From assembly GCA_041652335.1 (NCBI GenBank), contig JBAZHL010000002.1, positions 1-42,666 of the forward strand: a stretch of 42,666 bases of DNA. Reading direction: 5' to 3'. Under the pieces are notes generated by a model, which searched no databases, was not told the DNA's origin, and saw nothing but the letters and a program-made list of their open reading frames with translations. Shown here in pieces: positions 2,608 through 22,484 of this stretch. Origin of the DNA: Patescibacteria group bacterium. GTDB taxonomy: Bacteria > Patescibacteriota > Kazan-3B-28 > UBA10110. Position 1 is the first letter of the stretch, and each line of letters begins with the position of its first letter. Position numbers and translations under genes: made by a program.

Positions 2608-5280
2608 TTATCTATTTTCTTGTGGCGGTAACTCTGCCTTAGTGTTTTGGCGAATCAGTCTAACTCGCTGCAGGACCTGCGATAAGCGAGTGTTGTTTAA
2701 AGTGGTACCGGTCATGCCAGCGCCCAATCCGCCAGAATCTTGGAAGAACTTATCTAAGTTATTTTTAGTGGTCTGGTCTAACGCACTATCCACGGTCATG
2801 TCGTCAGTTACATCGGCGATATCTCCGACCCGGCTGATCAACTGGTCGTACATGTTATTGGCTCCGGTGTGGATGTTGTCTCTAACAGCTTCCACGGTTA
2901 ACTTAGGATCATCTTCAATCCGCTCTTGGATGAGTAGATCAACGGCTTGTTGATAGCTTTGAGTAGTATCACTTCCTAACTCGGCGCTGACTTGAGCGGA
3001 TAGGTCACCAGCAGTTTGTTGGGCGGAGCGAGTCTCATCTAAGGCAGGTTTGATCCGATCGATCAGTTGTCCAATTGTCATATTCCCGGCTTTAGCCCGA
3101 TCTCGCAGTTGGCGGGATAGTTGGATATCGGCGGGCGACATCTGAGCCTCCTGCGAGATGATGGCCAAGGCGGATATCTCTTCTTCTCTAATAGCAGGGA
3201 TATCCACGCGGAGCTGGGTTTTGCCAATTGCTCTTCCCTCTGAAAGGTCGCTCATAATAGCGGTGCCATCTTCGTGTTGAGCCAAGGCATCGAGAATCTC
3301 AGGGCGAATTTTTTCTAATTCAGCCTGAGCGGCTGGACTTTTAGATAGTTTATCGATCGCGGGGCTCTCGATCATAGTATCGATAGCCTGTTCGTCTAAG
3401 CGGAACGGTTTTAACGCAGCGGTTAGTGTGCCGCGAGCGATCTTTGAACGGGCTTCTGCCTGAGCTAACTGCAGCTCTCGGCTACTGGAAGCGTAATGGG
3501 GAGCGGAGATGCCTCCCGCAGCTTCATCATCCAGATCATCCCGCTGGGTTGGTATGTACTGGTTGCCTCTTTTATCGGCTGGAGGTTCCACGTCGCGACT
3601 ATCCAGATAGTAGGCTTTCATGGTTGGGTCTACTAAGCGATCTCTCTCGAAGGTGGTCAGACGTTTGATGCGGGAAGTTAGCCAGCCCTGGTTATTTTTC
3701 TCATTCTTATCGGCCATAAACTCACCATATAGGTCGGCGTCTGTGATTTTTTGTTGATCGCTTCGGCTATCTTTCATCTTTGGATCTTGCTGATGTATGG
3801 CGTGTTGCATTGAGCGGAGCAACCGGTAGGCGTTATAGCGTTCCTTAGGAACCAGTCTGGTGTTACGAACTACATCATCAGCCACGCGAGCGTTAGTAGC
3901 ATAGTTGATGTAGCTATCTGATGAGTCTAATAGGGTTTTGGCCAATGCGTCATACCCAGCATAGCCGTGCCGTTTAGCAGTTTCTTCGTGAACCTCTCCG
4001 CGAACACCCTTGATTAACCCAGGACGCCACGGATTCCACCCAGCTATATTCAAATCCGCAAGACGGGTGACACCGCGAGCGGCTGCCATGCCAGATTCAC
4101 TTTCTCTGGTTTTTTTCAGTGCTTCCCGGGCTTTTTTGATAGTTGCTGGGATAGCGCCTATTTGGGTTCCAATGTTTCTAAATTTTCCAAATTTTTCACT
4201 ACCGGTAGCTAAGTTCAACAGACCACCGGTGGCACTGCGGGTTAGGCCAATGCCCTTCCCGGCCAGATTTTTGCCGGTGACTGTATCGGCCGCTTGCTTC
4301 CACCCTTTCTGACCCAGGCTGATCATCTTGTTGGGTGATTCCACCAATCCAGTGAGAGAGCCACCTAACTTTAACATCTTAGGCACGGTACCGCCCATAT
4401 AGATCAGAGTCATGCCAATGATGAAGGAAAATAGATCTTTTATGTTATCACCCAGTGAGCCGTTGGGTACATTGATGGAGTTGCTGAGTTCGTAAATAAA
4501 CTCACTGGGTTTACCACTTTCGATCTGTTCAAGCACAAATACTCCCAACGCCAGAATGGCGTAGGTGATTGGCATAGCCAGTAACCACTTGAATACATTC
4601 TCAAACCACTGAGATGCCATTTTTTGAGTTGTAGGTAGCACGCTCAAACCAAACGATAACGGGGCAATGATCAACATCACAAACAGGTTGATAGCTCGCT
4701 CGATCAGCAGTAGGGCTAACTTGATCAATACCCAGGCGGATATGACCATGGCGACTAATACCAAAACAGTGCCATTGCTAAACTGAAAAAAGTGATCCGT
4801 GATCTTGATGCCGGCCAGATCTTTTAGGTAGGTGGTAATATCGGTGAGAGTCACTCCAATTCCGGTAGCGGAAAATAAATAGGACACACTGTTGAGCAGC
4901 GCATTGCCAACCTCAAGTAGGGCATAGAAGATAGGTTGGCTAAGATTGGCTAAAATGGCCATGATGATAAAGCTCCCCAAAAACTTTTTGATGTTGTAGG
5001 TGCCGGTACCAATACGTAGAATAATAGCAATCGAGGCAATTAGTAGCCCCAGGAGCAAAAACCCGTTGGCTAAACTAAGTGCGGCGGCGTGGGCGCCGTC
5101 CAGAGTTTTGGCTAACGCCGAGTCGGAGGAGAAGACCCAGTTGGGTTCGCCTAACAGGATGTCTAATATTTGGTTAACGATCGGCATAATAATGCCGGCG
5201 ATCATCTCAGCGAGCAGACCGATAAATCTGCTTAGTAGCTCTACCAGTCCCATCCCCAATTTAGTGATAAAGTCGCTCAT
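2608..5280 (-). CDS. VirB6/TrbL-like polytopic membrane protein with long hydrophilic C-terminal extension
   Basis: 890-aa ORF. The first ~330 aa carry multiple hydrophobic helices and the remaining ~560 aa are hydrophilic. It is the first gene of the minus-strand T4SS operon, 5 nt upstream of the PrgI-like gene. Confidence 0.55.
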   Translation of the reverse strand: MSDFITKLGMGLVELLSRFIGLLAEMIAGIIMPIVNQILDILLGEPNWVFSSDSALAKTLDGAHAAALSLANGFLLLGLLIASIAIILRIGTGTYNIKKFLGSFIIMAILANLSQPIFYALLEVGNALLNSVSYLFSATGIGVTLTDITTYLKDLAGIKITDHFFQFSNGTVLVLVAMVISAWVLIKLALLLIERAINLFVMLIIAPLSFGLSVLPTTQKMASQWFENVFKWLLAMPITYAILALGVFVLEQIESGKPSEFIYELSNSINVPNGSLGDNIKDLFSFIIGMTLIYMGGTVPKMLKLGGSLTGLVESPNKMISLGQKGWKQAADTVTGKNLAGKGIGLTRSATGGLLNLATGSEKFGKFRNIGTQIGAIPATIKKAREALKKTRESESGMAAARGVTRLADLNIAGWNPWRPGLIKGVRGEVHEETAKRHGYAGYDALAKTLLDSSDSYINYATNARVADDVVRNTRLVPKERYNAYRLLRSMQHAIHQQDPKMKDSRSDQQKITDADLYGEFMADKNEKNNQGWLTSRIKRLTTFERDRLVDPTMKAYYLDSRDVEPPADKRGNQYIPTQRDDLDDEAAGGISAPHYASSSRELQLAQAEARSKIARGTLTAALKPFRLDEQAIDTMIESPAIDKLSKSPAAQAELEKIRPEILDALAQHEDGTAIMSDLSEGRAIGKTQLRVDIPAIREEEISALAIISQEAQMSPADIQLSRQLRDRAKAGNMTIGQLIDRIKPALDETRSAQQTAGDLSAQVSAELGSDTTQSYQQAVDLLIQERIEDDPKLTVEAVRDNIHTGANNMYDQLISRVGDIADVTDDMTVDSALDQTTKNNLDKFFQDSGGLGAGMTGTTLNNTRLSQVLQRVRLIRQNTKAELPPQENR

Positions 5281-7074: not shown

Positions 7075-9231
7075 ATGGCCGACGAAGTAGGAGGGATACA
7101 ACAGTGGTCAACTGGTAGTGGTGATGATGACGATCAGCGCCAACAAAAGGATCGAGATGACTCGAACCAGCCTTCAAATACAAGACGTCAACCCAAAAAA
7201 AAGAGCGAAGACAAACCCAAGAAGTCGGATCAGTCGGGAAAACCTACCGGAAAAGACAAAGACGACGATAAAAAGATCCCTCGAGGCAGCCGGCCCTCTG
7301 GGGCAGATAAAAAGGCAAGCGGTGAACCGCAGCCCAAGCCCGCTCCGACTACTAAGCCAGCGGCTCAACCTTCGGGAGCGGGGAGTGGGGCTGGCCAAGC
7401 CGGAAAGGCGGTAGGTGAAGCTGCCGGTAAAGCGCGAGCAGGGGCAGAAGCGGCCGCCCGGCCTGCGGTTGAGGCGGGGAGACAGGCGGCGGTTCAGGCA
7501 ACAGCCAGGTTGGCAGAGGCAGCGGCCAGGATAGCGGCAGAGGTGGCGGCCAAGGTAGCGAAGGCAACCGAAAAGATAGTCCAAGCGGTAGTTAAATTTT
7601 TGAGTAACCCGTATGTTTTAGCGGCAGTTTTGGTGATCGTAATTGTGATGGTGTTATTCAATATCTTTATGGGATCGGTTAACCAAATTAGTAGTTTGGC
7701 GGGCGGATCGATCTTTGTGCCAGCCGACCATAATAATCCCGCTCATCAGCAGATCGTTAACCGACTAAAAGAAAAGATGAGTGGTTGCGACCCAAAACTG
7801 GTGGTTTATGATGGCGGAATTAGCGATATTGATTGGCAAGTTGATCCGACCAGCGGTGGATACACTCATAAGTTGGACATTAGATTATTGAAGACCTTAG
7901 ATTATTTGACCGACAAACATCGTATTCGGATCGATCTGCTAAAGACTGGCGCTCCAGATCTGGTGCGGGATCTTTTTTTGAAAAAGAAGGCTCAGTATAG
8001 TTCGACTGGCCAGGATGAAGTTGAACAGAAGGAGACTTTGTCGGCTTTTACCACTGGCCAGGCCATGGCGATAGTGGAGATCGACCGAACCAAGATCCCG
8101 GAGCTGCAGTCGGCCGATGTGGCTTGTAACGCGCCGGTGCCGGCGCCGATTGAGGTTGGTTGGCAACGAACGGTGGGGGAAAAAACCATCCGTCCTATCT
8201 GGGAGGAACTGGCTTATGATGTAGGATTTTTGGATAAGAATTATTTTATTTATCAGGGAGTTGCCGGAAGTGATGACCAGATGGCGATCCAACGAGTGGC
8301 GCGCGCATATAAATTAAGCGAACCAGTGGACGGTGCTTATGATCTATACAAGGAGACATTTAACAAGTTGCCTCGCATTGTGGATCTGATTGATCGGGCA
8401 TTAGTCTATGGCCAGAATAATTTTTCGGGCGACCAGGCGTTGGACTCTCGAGCATTAGCGTATCTGCAAAAAGCGAGAGAGAGCTATGCATCGCTGGTGA
8501 CCTTGGTAAGTGGAATAAATAGTGGGATGGCTGAAGAGGAGATCGCGGAGACGATCAAAGAGCTGGGGGCGGATGGCAGTTTGGCCACCATGAGAACGGG
8601 TGCCCGGTTTGTGTATAAAGCCACGCAGGTTAAGAATAGTGTTAACTGGGCCAAGAAGAAAAAAAATGGGGATCTGACTTGGATTAAAGCAGATGAGTCG
8701 CGCAACAAGATCCGCCAGGTATTGGCGGAGCTGTTGGTGATGCCACGGGACACCTCGCTCGAAGGAACCCCAAAGTTGTTTGATAGTAGCTTGGTAGCAA
8801 AACAGATAATTACTTTTTCGCCGGAGGATGATTTAGATAATGGCTTGGAGAACGTGGATGTATTTCCCAGAGGGATTGTATCGGTCAATACGGGTGGAGT
8901 AGCGATGGAGACTCTGTCGGTTGATTCAACTACTGGCAATGCGGTAGGTAATGGGTTAATCGATTATGCCGACAGCCAGTTTAGCCACGCCCCGATCGAT
9001 AACGGTACCTTTAGTAAAAATGGCGCTAACTATATTTACAAACAAGTTCGCCCAGAGGACTCAACCTGGGAAAAGGTGGGCGCCTTTGTTTGGAACTATC
9101 TAACGATGCCAGGGCAGTTATCATCAGCCAATGACAAGCTACACGAGCTAACGGTGGGGGGATGTGTGTCGGGGATGAACGAAAGCTGTCGCAAGGTCAG
9201 CTATAAAGATTTTCTATATGTGGCCTTTTAG
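7075..9231 (+). CDS. 718-aa membrane-anchored protein of unknown function (Lys/Asp-rich then Ala-rich N-terminus, one TM, ~520-aa extracytoplasmic domain)
   Basis: Long ORF starting 4 nt after the preceding stop. Low-complexity residues 1-170, TM segment VLAAVLVIVIVMVLFNIF, then a complex-composition domain. Confidence 0.75.
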   Translation: MADEVGGIQQWSTGSGDDDDQRQQKDRDDSNQPSNTRRQPKKKSEDKPKKSDQSGKPTGKDKDDDKKIPRGSRPSGADKKASGEPQPKPAPTTKPAAQPSGAGSGAGQAGKAVGEAAGKARAGAEAAARPAVEAGRQAAVQATARLAEAAARIAAEVAAKVAKATEKIVQAVVKFLSNPYVLAAVLVIVIVMVLFNIFMGSVNQISSLAGGSIFVPADHNNPAHQQIVNRLKEKMSGCDPKLVVYDGGISDIDWQVDPTSGGYTHKLDIRLLKTLDYLTDKHRIRIDLLKTGAPDLVRDLFLKKKAQYSSTGQDEVEQKETLSAFTTGQAMAIVEIDRTKIPELQSADVACNAPVPAPIEVGWQRTVGEKTIRPIWEELAYDVGFLDKNYFIYQGVAGSDDQMAIQRVARAYKLSEPVDGAYDLYKETFNKLPRIVDLIDRALVYGQNNFSGDQALDSRALAYLQKARESYASLVTLVSGINSGMAEEEIAETIKELGADGSLATMRTGARFVYKATQVKNSVNWAKKKKNGDLTWIKADESRNKIRQVLAELLVMPRDTSLEGTPKLFDSSLVAKQIITFSPEDDLDNGLENVDVFPRGIVSVNTGGVAMETLSVDSTTGNAVGNGLIDYADSQFSHAPIDNGTFSKNGANYIYKQVRPEDSTWEKVGAFVWNYLTMPGQLSSANDKLHELTVGGCVSGMNESCRKVSYKDFLYVAF

Positions 9232-9291: not shown

Positions 9292-9384
9292 GGTGAGGTA
9301 CCCAAGTGGCTGAAGGGGCTGGTTTGCTAAACCGGTAGAGGGGAGAAATCCCCTGCGAGGGTTCGAATCCCTCCCTCACCGCCA
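9292..9384 (+). tRNA. tRNA-Ser(GCU), CCA encoded
   Basis: Hand-folded. Acceptor GGTGAGG/CCTCACC, anticodon stem CTGGT/ACCGG with loop TTGCTAA, long variable arm, T-arm GAGGG-TTCGAAT-CCCTC, then G and CCA. Confidence 0.9.
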
Positions 9385-9387
9385 CGG

Positions 9388-9509
9388 TTTGGCGATCTTG
9401 CTTTGGCGAGATGGGCAGACCGTTGGTGAAGACGGACAGAGGGATGAGAGGTTTATACCCGACTTATAGAATATATATGGAAGGGTAAATCCCTCCCTCA
9501 CCGCCACGG
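9388..9509 (+). repeat. 100-bp insert followed by a 22-bp exact direct repeat of the tRNA-Ser(GCU) 3' end; carries a conserved core shared with 22397..22484
   Basis: AATCCCTCCCTCACCGCCACGG occurs at 9366..9387 and again at 9488..9509. The core 9439..9495 reads GAGGG-AT-GAGAGGTTTATACCCG-AC-TTATAGAATATATATGGAAGGGTAA-AT-CCCTC. Confidence 0.85.
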
Positions 9510-9597
9510 AGGCGTGGCCGAGTGGTTTATGGCGCTGGTCTTGAAAACCAGTTGGGATGCAAGTCCCTCACAGGTTCGAACCCTGTCGCCTCCGCCA
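9508..9597 (+). tRNA. tRNA-Ser(UGA), CCA encoded
   Basis: Acceptor GGAGGCG/CGCCTCC, anticodon loop CTTGAAA, long variable arm, T-arm ACAGG-TTCGAAC-CCTGT, then G and CCA. Confidence 0.9.
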
Positions 9598-9675
9598 ATT
9601 AATAATGTAGGTTCGATCCGCTGTCTGGCGGACTACTATCACAGATAATAGTTAGAGCATTTAATATCTATAGCC

Positions 9676-10171: not shown

Positions 10172-10248
10172 GCGCCCGTAGCTCAGGGGATCAGAGCGAT
10201 CGGCTACGGACCGATAGGTCGGGGGTTCGAATCCCTCCGGGCGCACCA
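10172..10248 (+). tRNA. tRNA-Arg(ACG), CCA encoded
   Basis: Acceptor GCGCCCG/CGGGCGC, anticodon stem ATCGG/CCGAT with loop CTACGGA, T-arm GGGGG-TTCGAAT-CCCTC, then A and CCA. Confidence 0.9.
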
Positions 10249-10414
10249 AAAACTAACACTTATCTTTTGATGAGTGGTGGTTTTTTATTGAGCCAAGAAG
10301 GGATTCGAACCCAGTGAAAGGGGTCGGGGAAACGGGAGTTTCCCCGTAGTGGAAGAATCGAAACCGCAAGGTGTCGAGGAGGGGTGAGGCAGCCCGAACC
10401 CCGACGGGTTCCAT

Positions 10415-10432
10415 ATCCCTCCGGGCGCACCA
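10415..10432 (+). repeat. 18-bp exact direct repeat of the tRNA-Arg 3' end (second copy)
   Basis: ATCCCTCCGGGCGCACCA occurs at 10231..10248 inside the tRNA and again at 10415..10432, 166 nt downstream. Confidence 0.85.
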
Positions 10433-10581
10433 CGTCAGAACAACTACGCTCCTCGCGAACCGATGGAATCGGTTCGCTTGTGGTCCGCTTAGTTGTTCTT
10501 CCTTTCCAAATCATGAACGCCTCGAGGTTTGCACCTCGGGGCTATTGCATGATTTGGACTAAAAGCACCAACTGACGAAAC

Positions 10582-22188: not shown

Positions 22189-22262
22189 GGGCCGTTGGCT
22201 CAGTTGGTAGAGCGGTCCGATGGACATCGGATAGGTCATCGTTTCGTCAGATGTTAGGTTGA
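22189..22262 (+). pseudogene. decayed tRNA-Ala duplicate (intact 5' half only)
   Basis: The first 26 nt GGGCCGTTGGCTCAGTTGGTAGAGCG are identical to the tRNA-Ala at 22274. The remainder has a 6-nt anticodon-like loop (TGGACA), a poor T-arm and no complementary acceptor 3' strand. Confidence 0.7.
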
Positions 22263-22273
22263 TAAGTTGTTAA

Positions 22274-22349
22274 GGGCCGTTGGCTCAGTTGGTAGAGCGC
22301 CTCCATGGCATGGAGGAGGTCACCGGTTCGAATCCGGTACGGTCCACCA
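22274..22349 (+). tRNA. tRNA-Ala(GGC), CCA encoded
   Basis: Acceptor GGGCCGT/ACGGTCC with the G3:U70 alanine identity pair, anticodon stem CCTCC/GGAGG with loop ATGGCAT, T-arm ACCGG-TTCGAAT-CCGGT. Confidence 0.9.
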
Positions 22350-22357
22350 GAAAATAA

Positions 22358-22385
22358 CACCCGCATCGGCGGGTGGTATTTTTAT
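22358..22385 (+). terminator. intrinsic terminator after tRNA-Ala
   Basis: CACCCGC-ATCG-GCGGGTG followed by GTATTTTTA. Confidence 0.6.
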
Positions 22386-22396
22386 GTGTAGTAAAC

Positions 22397-22484
22397 ACCG
22401 GATGAGAAGTTTATACCCGCCTACCGGCAGGCAGGCTCGACCTATAAAATGTATATAGGAGGGTAAATCCGGTACGGTCCACTA
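22397..22484 (+). repeat. conserved core element plus a direct repeat of the tRNA-Ala 3' end (17 nt exact, 18 of 19)
   Basis: AATCCGGTACGGTCCAC occurs at 22331..22347 and 22466..22482. The core reads ACCGG-AT-GAGAAGTTTATACCCG-[20-nt insert]-AC-CTATAAAATGTATATAGGAGGGTAA-AT-CCGGT and is homologous to 9439..9495. Confidence 0.85.

Follow-up and report, generated by a model that had tools for sequence, protein, structure and literature searches.

Positions 1 to 42,666 of contig JBAZHL010000002.1 (assembly GCA_041652335.1, from a Patescibacteria group bacterium of the Kazan-3B-28 lineage) were analysed, and this whole stretch of 42,666 nt is referred to as the window. Two of its tRNA genes, tRNA-Ser(GCU) and tRNA-Ser(UGA), enclose the segment 9385-9506. 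This segment belongs, as a single unit, to a family of short non-coding cassettes located just 3' of tRNA genes. This family was named type I. The Ser locus is built up as follows:

9292-9384, + strand: tRNA-Ser(GCU), the host gene (ARAGORN; Rfam tRNA, 56.7 bits)
9385-9422, + strand: spacer hairpin H0, CGGTTTGGCGATCTTGC-TTTG-GCGAGATGGGCAGACCG, the first part of the Ser unit (predicted fold)
9423-9438, + strand: linker TTGGTGAAGACGGACA (read from the sequence)
9439-9445, + strand: 5' strand of helix P1, GAGGGAT, the reverse complement of tRNA nt 59-65 (T-stem 5' strand plus AU)
9446-9455, + strand: J1/2, GAGAGGTTTA, unpaired and conserved, family consensus GAGAAGUUUA (alignment)
9456-9460 with 9483-9487, + strand: helix P2, TACCC with GGGTA, enclosing the subtype-A tip hairpin P3 (9463-9480)
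9488-9506, + strand: tail AAT-CCCTC-CCTCACC-G-CCA, a copy of tRNA-Ser(GCU) nt 58-76
9508-9597, + strand: tRNA-Ser(UGA), the right-hand neighbour of the insertion (ARAGORN, Rfam)

A type I unit comprises a variable spacer that sometimes includes a hairpin or terminator, a strand of 5-7 nt complementary to nt 59-65 of the neighbouring tRNA, a conserved core and a copy of the tRNA from A58 through its 3' end. The core is formed by the unpaired GAGAAGUUUA, the helix UACCC/GGGUA and a variable tip. As a whole, the unit mimics the T-arm and 3' acceptor strand of a tRNA, with the core standing where the T-loop would be. In the Ser tail, A9488 is unpaired and the 3' strand of P1, ATCCCTC, corresponds to 9489-9495. 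The spacer hairpin H0 displays compensatory changes in relatives (CTCGCC/GGCGAG, CTTGCC/GGCAAG, CTTGC/GCGAG). The stretch GGTGAAG of the linker matches 6/7 of the 5' acceptor strand of the tRNA and is paired with the tail in the minimum free energy fold. An acceptor-strand extension of at least 5 bp was found in 9 of 44 copies overall, and it is rare among the copies from the candidate phyla radiation (CPR); a universal 5' acceptor strand, which would give a full minihelix, was rejected because it is not general.

The exact 22-bp direct repeat that had been reported in a preliminary description of this DNA was recovered. The window contains exactly two occurrences of the 22-nt AATCCCTCCCTCACCGCCACGG (9366-9387 and 9488-9509), and no match is expected by chance (100 shuffles, up to two mismatches permitted). 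The left copy spans the T-loop from A58 to the CCA (9366-9384) plus CGG. The right copy ends at 9509 with the first two bases of tRNA-Ser(UGA), as had been described, since this tRNA starts at 9508. The extent given earlier, T-loop to CCA plus three bases, is exact, but the terminal CGG is probably a coincidence, because CGR is the usual first triplet of the spacer and the other side consists of a C and the GG of the next tRNA. The tRNA-derived part of the Ser repeat therefore measures 19 nt, from A58 to CCA.

The core recurs behind tRNA-Ala, where a second type I unit was identified:

22189-22245, + strand: pseudo 5' part (nt 1-57) of tRNA-Ala, ending exactly at the T-loop TTCG
22274-22349, + strand: tRNA-Ala(GGC), functional, between the pseudo 5' part and the type I unit (ARAGORN, Rfam)
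22350-22396, + strand: trailer containing an intrinsic terminator (stem 22358-22375, followed by a T-run) and ending in a short linker
22397-22482, + strand: second type I unit (covariance-model match, 61.8 bits), with P1 5' strand ACCGGAT (22397-22403), J1/2 (22404-22413), P2 (22414-22418 with 22461-22465), an extra hairpin (22420-22439), P3 (22441-22459) and tail AATCCGGTACGGTCCAC (22466-22482)

The core word GATGAGARGTTTATACCCG was found at 9443-9461 and 22401-22419 and nowhere else in the window (0.02 expected). The 5' blocks 9442-9464 and 22400-22422 are 91% identical, and the 3' blocks 9460-9492 and 22438-22470 are 85% identical. The same core thus lies behind tRNA-Ala at 22400-22468 between ACCGG and CCGGT, in agreement with the preliminary description, and the 3' end of tRNA-Ala is repeated over 17 nt (22331-22347 and 22466-22482). 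At both sites the flanks of the core are the T-stem of the adjacent tRNA, GAGGG/CCCTC at Ser and ACCGG/CCGGT at Ala. The match of the 5-nt flanks to the local T-stem stands, but they are better seen as belonging to a longer strand of 7 nt that is complementary to nt 59-65 of the tRNA. Two structural details had to be revised. The stem proposed between TTTATA and TATARA was not supported, since many copies with UUUAUA have no TATARA partner and the covarying helix is UACCC(N)/(N)GGGUA. Likewise, the extra 20 nt of the Ala copy (22420-22439), which had been placed at the tip of that stem, instead branch just inside the UACCC/GGGUA helix. Overall, two of the five tRNAs in the window bear a type I unit, and tRNA-Arg bears a related unit, named type II, that is described below.

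The structure alignment comprised 33 distinct copies. P1 consists of the T-stem pair plus AU/AU and is followed by the ten unpaired bases GAGAAGUUUA on the 5' side and by one unpaired A on the 3' side; P2, UACCC(N)/(N)GGGUA, comes after GAGAAGUUUA. P1 and P2 together were 92% paired with 35 double-change cells, a level reached by 0 of 500 shuffles, and slid controls gave 24-52%. For helix 1 a pairing of 92.6% was observed, with double changes at 4 of 7 pairs. P2 variants in other copies include U.G, G.U and one A-U swap. P1 and P2 covary on the tRNA-sense strand, and the earlier suggestion that the flanks covary with the host tRNA is supported. The covariation of P1 is partly inherited from the tRNAs. 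In the loci L013, L023, L032 and L040 (L-numbers denote loci collected from genomes, metagenomes and viral contigs), the helix of the unit is compensated unlike the T-stem of the tRNA itself, indicating that the pairing is maintained in the unit as such. The 5' strand of P1 ends in AU and not in UU, and it is therefore the reverse complement of nt 59-65 rather than a copy of nt 49-55. In the inner helices G.U exceeds A.C by 5 to 1, which indicates that the tRNA-sense strand is the folding strand. Two subtypes of tip were distinguished: subtype A, GAC-YUAUARAAUAUAUAYGG-AA, to which both window copies belong, and subtype B, RRAGC-(GNA or hairpin)-AGCG-NA. Minimal copies have just a small hairpin as tip.

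Several other explanations of the core were tried and discarded. A small open reading frame (ORF) or 14-aa leader peptide (ATG...TAA in the core) was rejected since the frame is not conserved: the lengths from ATG to TAA are 38, 46, 59, 62 and 65 nt beside 39, 45 and 60 nt. The apparent Shine-Dalgarno sequence is the T-stem strand and varies with the tRNA. A portable promoter was rejected as well, since one weak sigma-70-like match was seen in the Ser copy and none in the Ala copy, and subtype B is devoid of the TATA-rich tip. The weak match (ATGAGA-17 nt-TAGAAT, 9444-9472) lies in the subtype-A core, points to tRNA-Ser(UGA) and is missing from subtype-B copies. The motif GAUGAG resembles a hammerhead, but the CUGA core is missing, as judged by eye.

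A search beyond the window, suggested in the preliminary description, revealed many more copies. Species-representative genomes scanned with the pattern ATGAGARGTTTATACCC-N16-46-GGGTAAAT gave 9 loci, in metagenome-assembled genomes (MAGs) labelled Kazan, Peribacteria, Falkowbacteria and Patescibacteria, plus two labelled Gammaproteobacteria (L004 and L009, labels unverified and marker scan uninformative). The metagenome scan gave 33 further loci. The pattern matched 48 copies, 39 of them distinct, from 43 sources, and the covariance model gave 51 matches. Type I is a widespread family of about 50 copies in Patescibacteria MAGs and metagenomes. Wherever the upstream sequence is present, a same-strand tRNA is located 13-265 nt upstream of the unit, with three or four exceptions; three or four orphan copies adjoin decayed tRNA ends. 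Eleven tRNA species serve as hosts, namely Ser (GCU, GGA, CGA and UGA), Leu UAA, Gln (CUG and UUG), Asn GUU, Lys CUU, Ala GGC and Val GAC. When the flanks were tabulated against the host tRNA, as had also been suggested, they were found to follow the local T-stem at all 11 species: across the collected copies, the bases flanking the core are the T-stem of the local tRNA, and these are followed by its 3' acceptor strand.

The tail equals the neighbouring tRNA from A58 to the end in 25 of 35 units, and the identity ends within 1-2 nt of the tRNA end. For genes without an encoded CCA, the tail usually is without CCA too, and the tail of L037 carries the non-CCA bases of the gene. The tail therefore reflects the gene and not the mature tRNA, and a derivation from the mature tRNA was rejected on this basis. 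At L014 (~3700-4060), ARAGORN misses the tRNA upstream of a type I unit; an intron-containing gene is suggested by a group-I-intron-like GGTTCAGAGACTA in this region and by the terminal part of an HNH-like ORF.

In order to compare the Ser site among relatives, the orthologous locus was retrieved via homologues of the 162-aa ORF adjoining it. Empty sites, which the preliminary description had proposed to look for, were found: the locus is empty, single or double. The gap between tRNA-Ser(GCU) and tRNA-Ser(UGA) holds no unit in L049/L050 (27 nt) and L055 (35 nt), one unit in the window, L046, L047, L052 and L029, and two units in L051, for which the ORF product and the flanks are identical to those of L052. 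In L054, an 84-aa GIY-YIG ORF is present instead. The two tRNAs of the empty sites are thus 27-35 nt apart, against the ancestral spacing of 1 nt proposed in the preliminary description. The extra unit of L051 bears the acceptor single-nucleotide polymorphism (SNP) of tRNA-Ser(GGA), and the final tail at the Ser(GGA) locus of a Kazan genome bears the SNP of Ser(GCU/CGA). The sole difference between L018 and L010/L041 at the Ser(CGA) locus is one additional, non-identical unit in L018. Tandem arrays were observed in L007, L018, L031 and L051, and decayed or orphan copies in L006, L017, L021 and L038. The loci with zero, one or two units and the exchanged SNPs show that units are dispensable, variable in populations and exchanged between tRNA loci. 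The 5' half of the L046 element is 57% identical within flanks of 100% identity, and the region upstream of the tRNA is ~72% identical; L046 was discarded as proof of element replacement, because a recombination breakpoint inside the unit explains the pattern.

The Ala locus gives a view of the junction. The anticodon arm of the pseudo-tRNA-Ala is replaced by the hairpin GTCCGATGGACATCGGA, which was also found in pseudo-tRNA-Asp and pseudo-tRNA-Pro of a Kazan genome. The same pseudo-tRNA-Ala fragment is present in L020 (~3153-3275), where the D-arm region is broken by a palindromic insert of ~63 nt. In both the window and L020, the pseudo-tRNA-Ala ends at G57 and the tail begins at A58, with the insert between them; from this arrangement, an older tRNA-Ala appears to have been split at 57/58 by the insert. 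The insert contains a short leader, the whole tRNA-Ala(GGC), a terminator, the closing strand and the core. Recombination between the resident and incoming tRNA copies could then collapse this layout to tRNA, spacer, core and tail. In L033, a Ser-type closing strand (GAGGG) is found at tRNA-Leu with a Leu-type tail, which fits an insertion with a travelling closing strand.

A second, larger structured family, type II, was found behind tRNA-Arg:

10172-10248, + strand: tRNA-Arg(ACG), the type II host (ARAGORN, Rfam)
10295-10431, + strand: type II unit, with the architecture of type I and a larger core, composed of an inverted T-arm copy GGGATTCGAACCC (10300-10312), a core of ~100 nt with GNRA-capped hairpins, a T-arm-like GGGTTCCATATCCC and the tail ATCCCTCCGGGCGCACCA (10414-10431), which repeats 10231-10248

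The end of tRNA-Arg(ACG) is thus likewise repeated (10231-10248 and 10414-10431), and the interior differs from type I. Among the collected loci, seven full type II copies were encountered incidentally at unrelated sites, behind Asn, Leu CAG, Leu AAG, Gly, Pro and Arg tRNAs, and truncated remnants lie behind tRNA-Arg in L028 and L054. The inverted T-arm copy tracks local T-loop variants such as TTCGAGT and TTCAAGT, and the identity of the tail also starts at nt 57-59, following the same variants. The core hairpins covary and are capped by GGGA/GGAA and GCAA. At the end of the unit, a T-arm-like hairpin with a loop altered at nt 57-58 precedes the acceptor 3' strand. The intermediate variants GAUUCGAAGUUUAU and AGUCGAAGUUUAU link type I with type II. 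An 84-aa ORF without family match lies on the minus strand (10260-10514) opposite the type II unit and is probably spurious; a public gene call exists at L046 3011-3265. Between the type II unit and the terminator of the pilin gene, a conserved non-coding block CCGCTTAG..TTCTTCCYTTCCAAAT..CTCGAGG...CCTCGGG was observed (~10455-10560), which is shared with a distant relative (L055, ~4190-4300). The trailers with terminators that follow tRNA-Arg (10249-10290) and tRNA-Ala (22350-22385) belong to one family, AAAAYTAACACCC...GGGTGGTGGTTTTT, which recurs behind different tRNAs in different genomes (L049, L051, L054) like a portable module.

Cassettes with GIY-YIG ORFs occupy the same tRNA-flank positions in L054, L036, L010/L041, L011 and relatives, and L055. 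The ORFs encode ~80-100 aa (L054 2496-2750; L036 484-882; L011 152-448; L055 2408-2728; L010 5228-5545). A conserved structured leader follows directly after the CCA, e.g. CCA followed by TTCGACTCGTCTCGG or by TGAAGCAGTGCAAAGC, and leader-only remnants are also found behind type I and type II tails. At tRNA-Pro, the GIY-YIG cassettes are bracketed by pseudo 5' and 3' tRNA pieces, in which recurrent hairpins, GTCCGA...TCGGAC and TCCGTCAGCTGACGGA, stand in for the anticodon or T arm. Upstream of tRNA-Pro there are at least two 5' pseudo-pieces in tandem, and a GIY-YIG ORF plus a 3' pseudo-piece lie downstream. The pseudo-tRNA pieces, from Asp and Pro, keep a cloverleaf-like layout (L010 7121-7180; L018 3167-3230; L010 5150-5700).

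Outside the CPR, scans of IMG/VR viral contigs gave true relatives at three loci, L066, L069 and L073, the other hits being chance matches. L066 and L069 lie behind tRNA-Tyr, next to a FabG that is 83% identical to an Oscillospiraceae protein. L073 comprises two units after a tRNA 3' fragment that abuts a tyrosine integrase gene, and it reads as host flank downstream of a prophage attachment (att) site. In L066/L069 and L073, a minimal core is closed by a helix of 12-18 bp that includes a copy of the 5' acceptor strand and ends in NCCA; this helix mimics an acceptor/T minihelix. In the IMG/VR scans the type I core was never inside a phage genome, and the type II pattern gave no match in the viral contigs. 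No match was obtained in the phage and plasmid collections INPHARED and PLSDB. A phage or plasmid origin was rejected, as the three IMG/VR loci look like host flank and the two collections contained no match. Against Rfam release 15, including ribozymes, tmRNA and riboswitches, only tRNAs passed and nothing credible was obtained over the units at E ≤ 10; no Rfam family fits, consistent with the earlier statement that the element matches no known ribozyme or repeat class. Protein scans of the window genes detected no integrase or transposase, as had been noted before, and no reverse transcriptase. Literature searches on the sequence words, CPR/tRNA/integrase, GIY-YIG/tRNA and T-loop/integration gave no description of the element.

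The favoured reading, to which we assign a probability of roughly 0.5, is that type I is a mobile but non-autonomous cassette, which enters tRNA genes at the T-loop and itself provides a replacement for the part that it displaces. This reading is based on the way the units are spread over tRNAs and lineages, on their arrays and their decay, on polymorphism at the strain level and on the split tRNA-Ala. Insertion would take place in the T-loop of a tRNA gene, between nt 57 and 58, and the incoming DNA would supply a substitute for the displaced part, either nt 58-76 or a whole tRNA gene, so that the tRNA would stay intact. The displaced nt 58-76 would become the tail, which would pair with the guide-like strand and close the core. 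The folded core, as RNA or single-stranded DNA, may be the cis-acting part for a trans-acting machinery. The co-resident small GIY-YIG nuclease cassettes are the sole candidate machinery seen, a lead and not a result. The preliminary description had offered two possibilities, a miniature element targeted to the T-loop or a structured RNA held in a T-arm-like helix; both are supported, and the two readings are compatible, the evidence not fully separating them. In a bolder form, which we regard as doubtful, the core would be an active nucleic acid, i.e. a new ribozyme or a handle of RNA or single-stranded DNA, with the guide strand directing insertion at 57/58, or else the unit would be a new RNA mimicking the top half of a tRNA. 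If the core were active and guided, it would represent a protein-less, base-pair-guided and retargetable mobile element, new for bacteria; if it were a top-half mimic, a dedicated domain would replace the elbow of T-loop and D-loop.

A number of observations weigh against the mobile cassette. No enzyme, intermediate or fresh insertion event was seen. Tails that mismatch their tRNA were found in L004, L008 and L013: the L008 tail has the SNP of another tRNA-Ser, and L004 differs at three acceptor positions (TCTCGTG vs TCTCCCA). Such tails are awkward for a simple crossover in the T-loop, and complete units together with their tails probably also move, or are converted, from one tRNA end to another similar one. 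In the Ala and Arg units of the window a terminator separates the tRNA from the unit, so that these units are not contiguous with the tRNA end; the family of this terminator is the native tRNA trailer in relatives, and in L020 a homologous terminator follows the tail. The pattern of zero, one and two units could also stem from an old unit and unequal or direct-repeat recombination. The GNRA and CUUG-type loops and the G.U bias suit an RNA with its own function. Finally, the invariance of GAGAAGUUUAUAC and GGUAAAU, including part of J1/2, is partly imposed by the search words; diverged covariance-model matches still keep AAGUUUAU and GGGUAAAU.

The main rival is a host-useful structured tRNA-mimic RNA made with or just after the cognate tRNA and composed of a T-stem-like helix, a 3' acceptor strand and, in certain lineages, the full acceptor/T minihelix, which might serve as a signal for processing by RNase P, RNase Z or exonucleases or for stability (comparable to a 't-element'), or as a small RNA or decoy for a tRNA-recognising factor, and which would have spread among tRNAs via duplication and gene conversion. 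This is tentatively considered a possible, though less probable, explanation. It would account for units being always on the tRNA strand, for helices that covary and prefer G.U on that strand, for RNA-type tetraloops, both GNRA (type II and some type I tips) and CUUG, and for the strong sequence conservation over distant lineages. The Oscillospiraceae-like and prophage-flank copies, with their complete acceptor/T-like helix of 12-18 bp and NCCA end, and the nearby pseudo-tRNA pieces that retain hairpins in anticodon or T-arm positions fit it as well. However, the orthologous site is empty in close relatives and units are elsewhere doubled, decayed or orphaned, only some tRNAs per genome have a unit, an intrinsic terminator stands in front of many units, no promoter is evident, and the 5' acceptor strand is missing from most CPR copies. 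If type I were nevertheless a functional RNA, it would be a new and widespread tRNA-mimic.

The classic hallmark of integrase-mediated insertion is a direct repeat of the tRNA 3' end that starts in the T-loop. Like integrative elements, units often come with a terminator of their own, and in L073 a tyrosine integrase gene stands beside a tRNA 3' fragment with two units next to it. The units could hence be integrase scars, or remnants like cis-mobilizable elements (CIMEs), with the repeat as attL/attR and the core as an attP leftover. This seems unlikely, since no integrase is found between the repeats at any locus and, among ~50 units, L073 is the only one with an integrase nearby, its units lying outside the int-att junction. 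Moreover, complete units of ~70-130 nt are too small for arm-type sites, the core lies inside the would-be crossover loop and has covarying helices that att sites do not need, the same core is found exactly over phylum-level lineages and 11 tRNA targets, and core matches in viral contigs are confined to the host-flank-like L066, L069 and L073. The distal repeat is compatible with the 5' strand of the tRNA in most units, but this is violated in L004, L008 and L013, and the SNPs of L008 and L004 contradict a tail that is the original chromosomal end. Self-propagation through RNA, in which a ribozyme or a reverse-transcriptase handle uses a guide pairing with nt 59-65 of the tRNA or pre-tRNA and is copied to DNA, appears improbable. 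The guide-like strand is indeed complementary to the sequence just 3' of the junction, and the loops are RNA-like. A retroviral primer-binding site covers the 3'-terminal 18 nt of a tRNA, and the 57/58 junction and the tail span about the same stretch. Against this stand tails that copy the gene and not the mature tRNA, terminators within units, a window without reverse transcriptase and the mismatch with known ribozymes. An ordinary inherited spacer with a chance repeat has only the small size of the segment in its favour, and it is already refuted by a chance expectation of about zero, ~50 copies elsewhere and the presence/absence variation.

Type I was compared with known systems. tRNA genes are classic landing pads for mobile DNA. 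To our knowledge, the known users of tRNA genes are large and bear an integrase. Phages, integrative and conjugative elements, islands and CIMEs share with type I the insertion at a tRNA gene, a 3' repeat starting in the T-loop, a tRNA kept intact by the copy in the insert, and tandem arrays. In contrast, type I measures 70-190 nt and has no gene, no arm-type sites and no linked integrase; it has a covarying fold in the pseudo T-loop, and one core is directed to at least 11 tRNA targets. The Dada elements of eukaryotes carry a copy of part of their target gene, so that the gene is not lost, and are DNA transposons mobilised by a transposase. Their insertion is targeted to tRNA or small-RNA genes (PMC8869645). 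Here the hosts are bacterial, there is no ORF and the conserved part is a small folded core. Integron cassettes with their attC sites and the integrative mobile elements exploiting Xer are also protein-less, accumulate in arrays at a single site and rely on a recombinase that is encoded elsewhere, and attC is recognised as folded single-stranded DNA, with an imperfect fold-back and a variable tip. In type I, however, there is no R''/R' consensus (RYYYAAC/GTTRRRY), the local T-stem forms the base of the fold (GAGGGAT/ATCCCTC, ACCGGAT/ATCCGGT), the repeat is a 17-22-nt tRNA end and not 6-7 nt, and the conserved region is at the tip and not at the hairpin base. Nor was an integron integrase observed.

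Plant mitochondrial t-elements, mascRNA and acceptor/T minihelices resemble type I in that a T-stem-like helix leads into a 3' acceptor strand, which may or may not carry CCA, and the Firmicute-like type I copies form a full minihelix. Type I differs from t-elements in the conserved domain of 25-70 nt that stands for the T-loop, in mostly lacking the 5' acceptor strand (CPR) and in its copy-number polymorphism. Free-standing GIY-YIG homing endonuclease cassettes of the T4 SegB type are found in tRNA clusters (PMC2330249), and the GIY-YIG ORFs described above share the positions of the units in the same genomes, whereas type I and type II encode nothing. A miniature inverted-repeat transposable element, i.e. 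a non-autonomous DDE transposon, would have terminal inverted repeats and an arbitrary target-site duplication of 2-10 bp; it was rejected because the inverted parts are T-stem or T-arm copies, different for each host tRNA, and because the duplication, of 17-22 nt, always consists of the tRNA end. Insertion at a tRNA gene with restoration of the target is thus of a known kind, and the miniature, gene-less and structured form, retargeted to many tRNAs, is apparently new.

The folded core is conserved over CPR lineages at the level of candidate phyla, with the arms rewritten for each tRNA. Should type I be mobile, its insertion mechanism would be an unrecognised one that could be guided by base pairing and therefore retargetable, and it would add a hidden layer to CPR genome dynamics. 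The type I family shares the tRNA flanks with a second structured family, small GIY-YIG cassettes and pseudo-tRNA pieces that preserve the tRNA architecture. In practical terms, the units are unannotated and gene callers put spurious ORFs across them.

The scanned genes of the window are mostly housekeeping ones, coding for LeuRS, DnaE, NusA, a class-I aminoacyl-tRNA synthetase (Trp/Tyr type), L19, RNase HII, EF-P, a Clp ATPase and YchF, and pilins of the type IV secretion system type are also encoded. Just 3' of tRNA-Ser(UGA), a palindromic hairpin, GTAGGTTCGATCCGCTGTCTGGCGGACTAC, was found at 9613-9640. It is related to TCCGTCAGCTGACGGA, a repeat that is present in L055, at the position corresponding to this hairpin, and in L008, L010 and L022. 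In addition, three overlapping 27-nt copies of a GCGGCAGAGGTGGCGGCCAAGGTAGCG-like sequence, spaced by 12 nt, were observed at 7510-7560 within a 718-aa ORF without family match.

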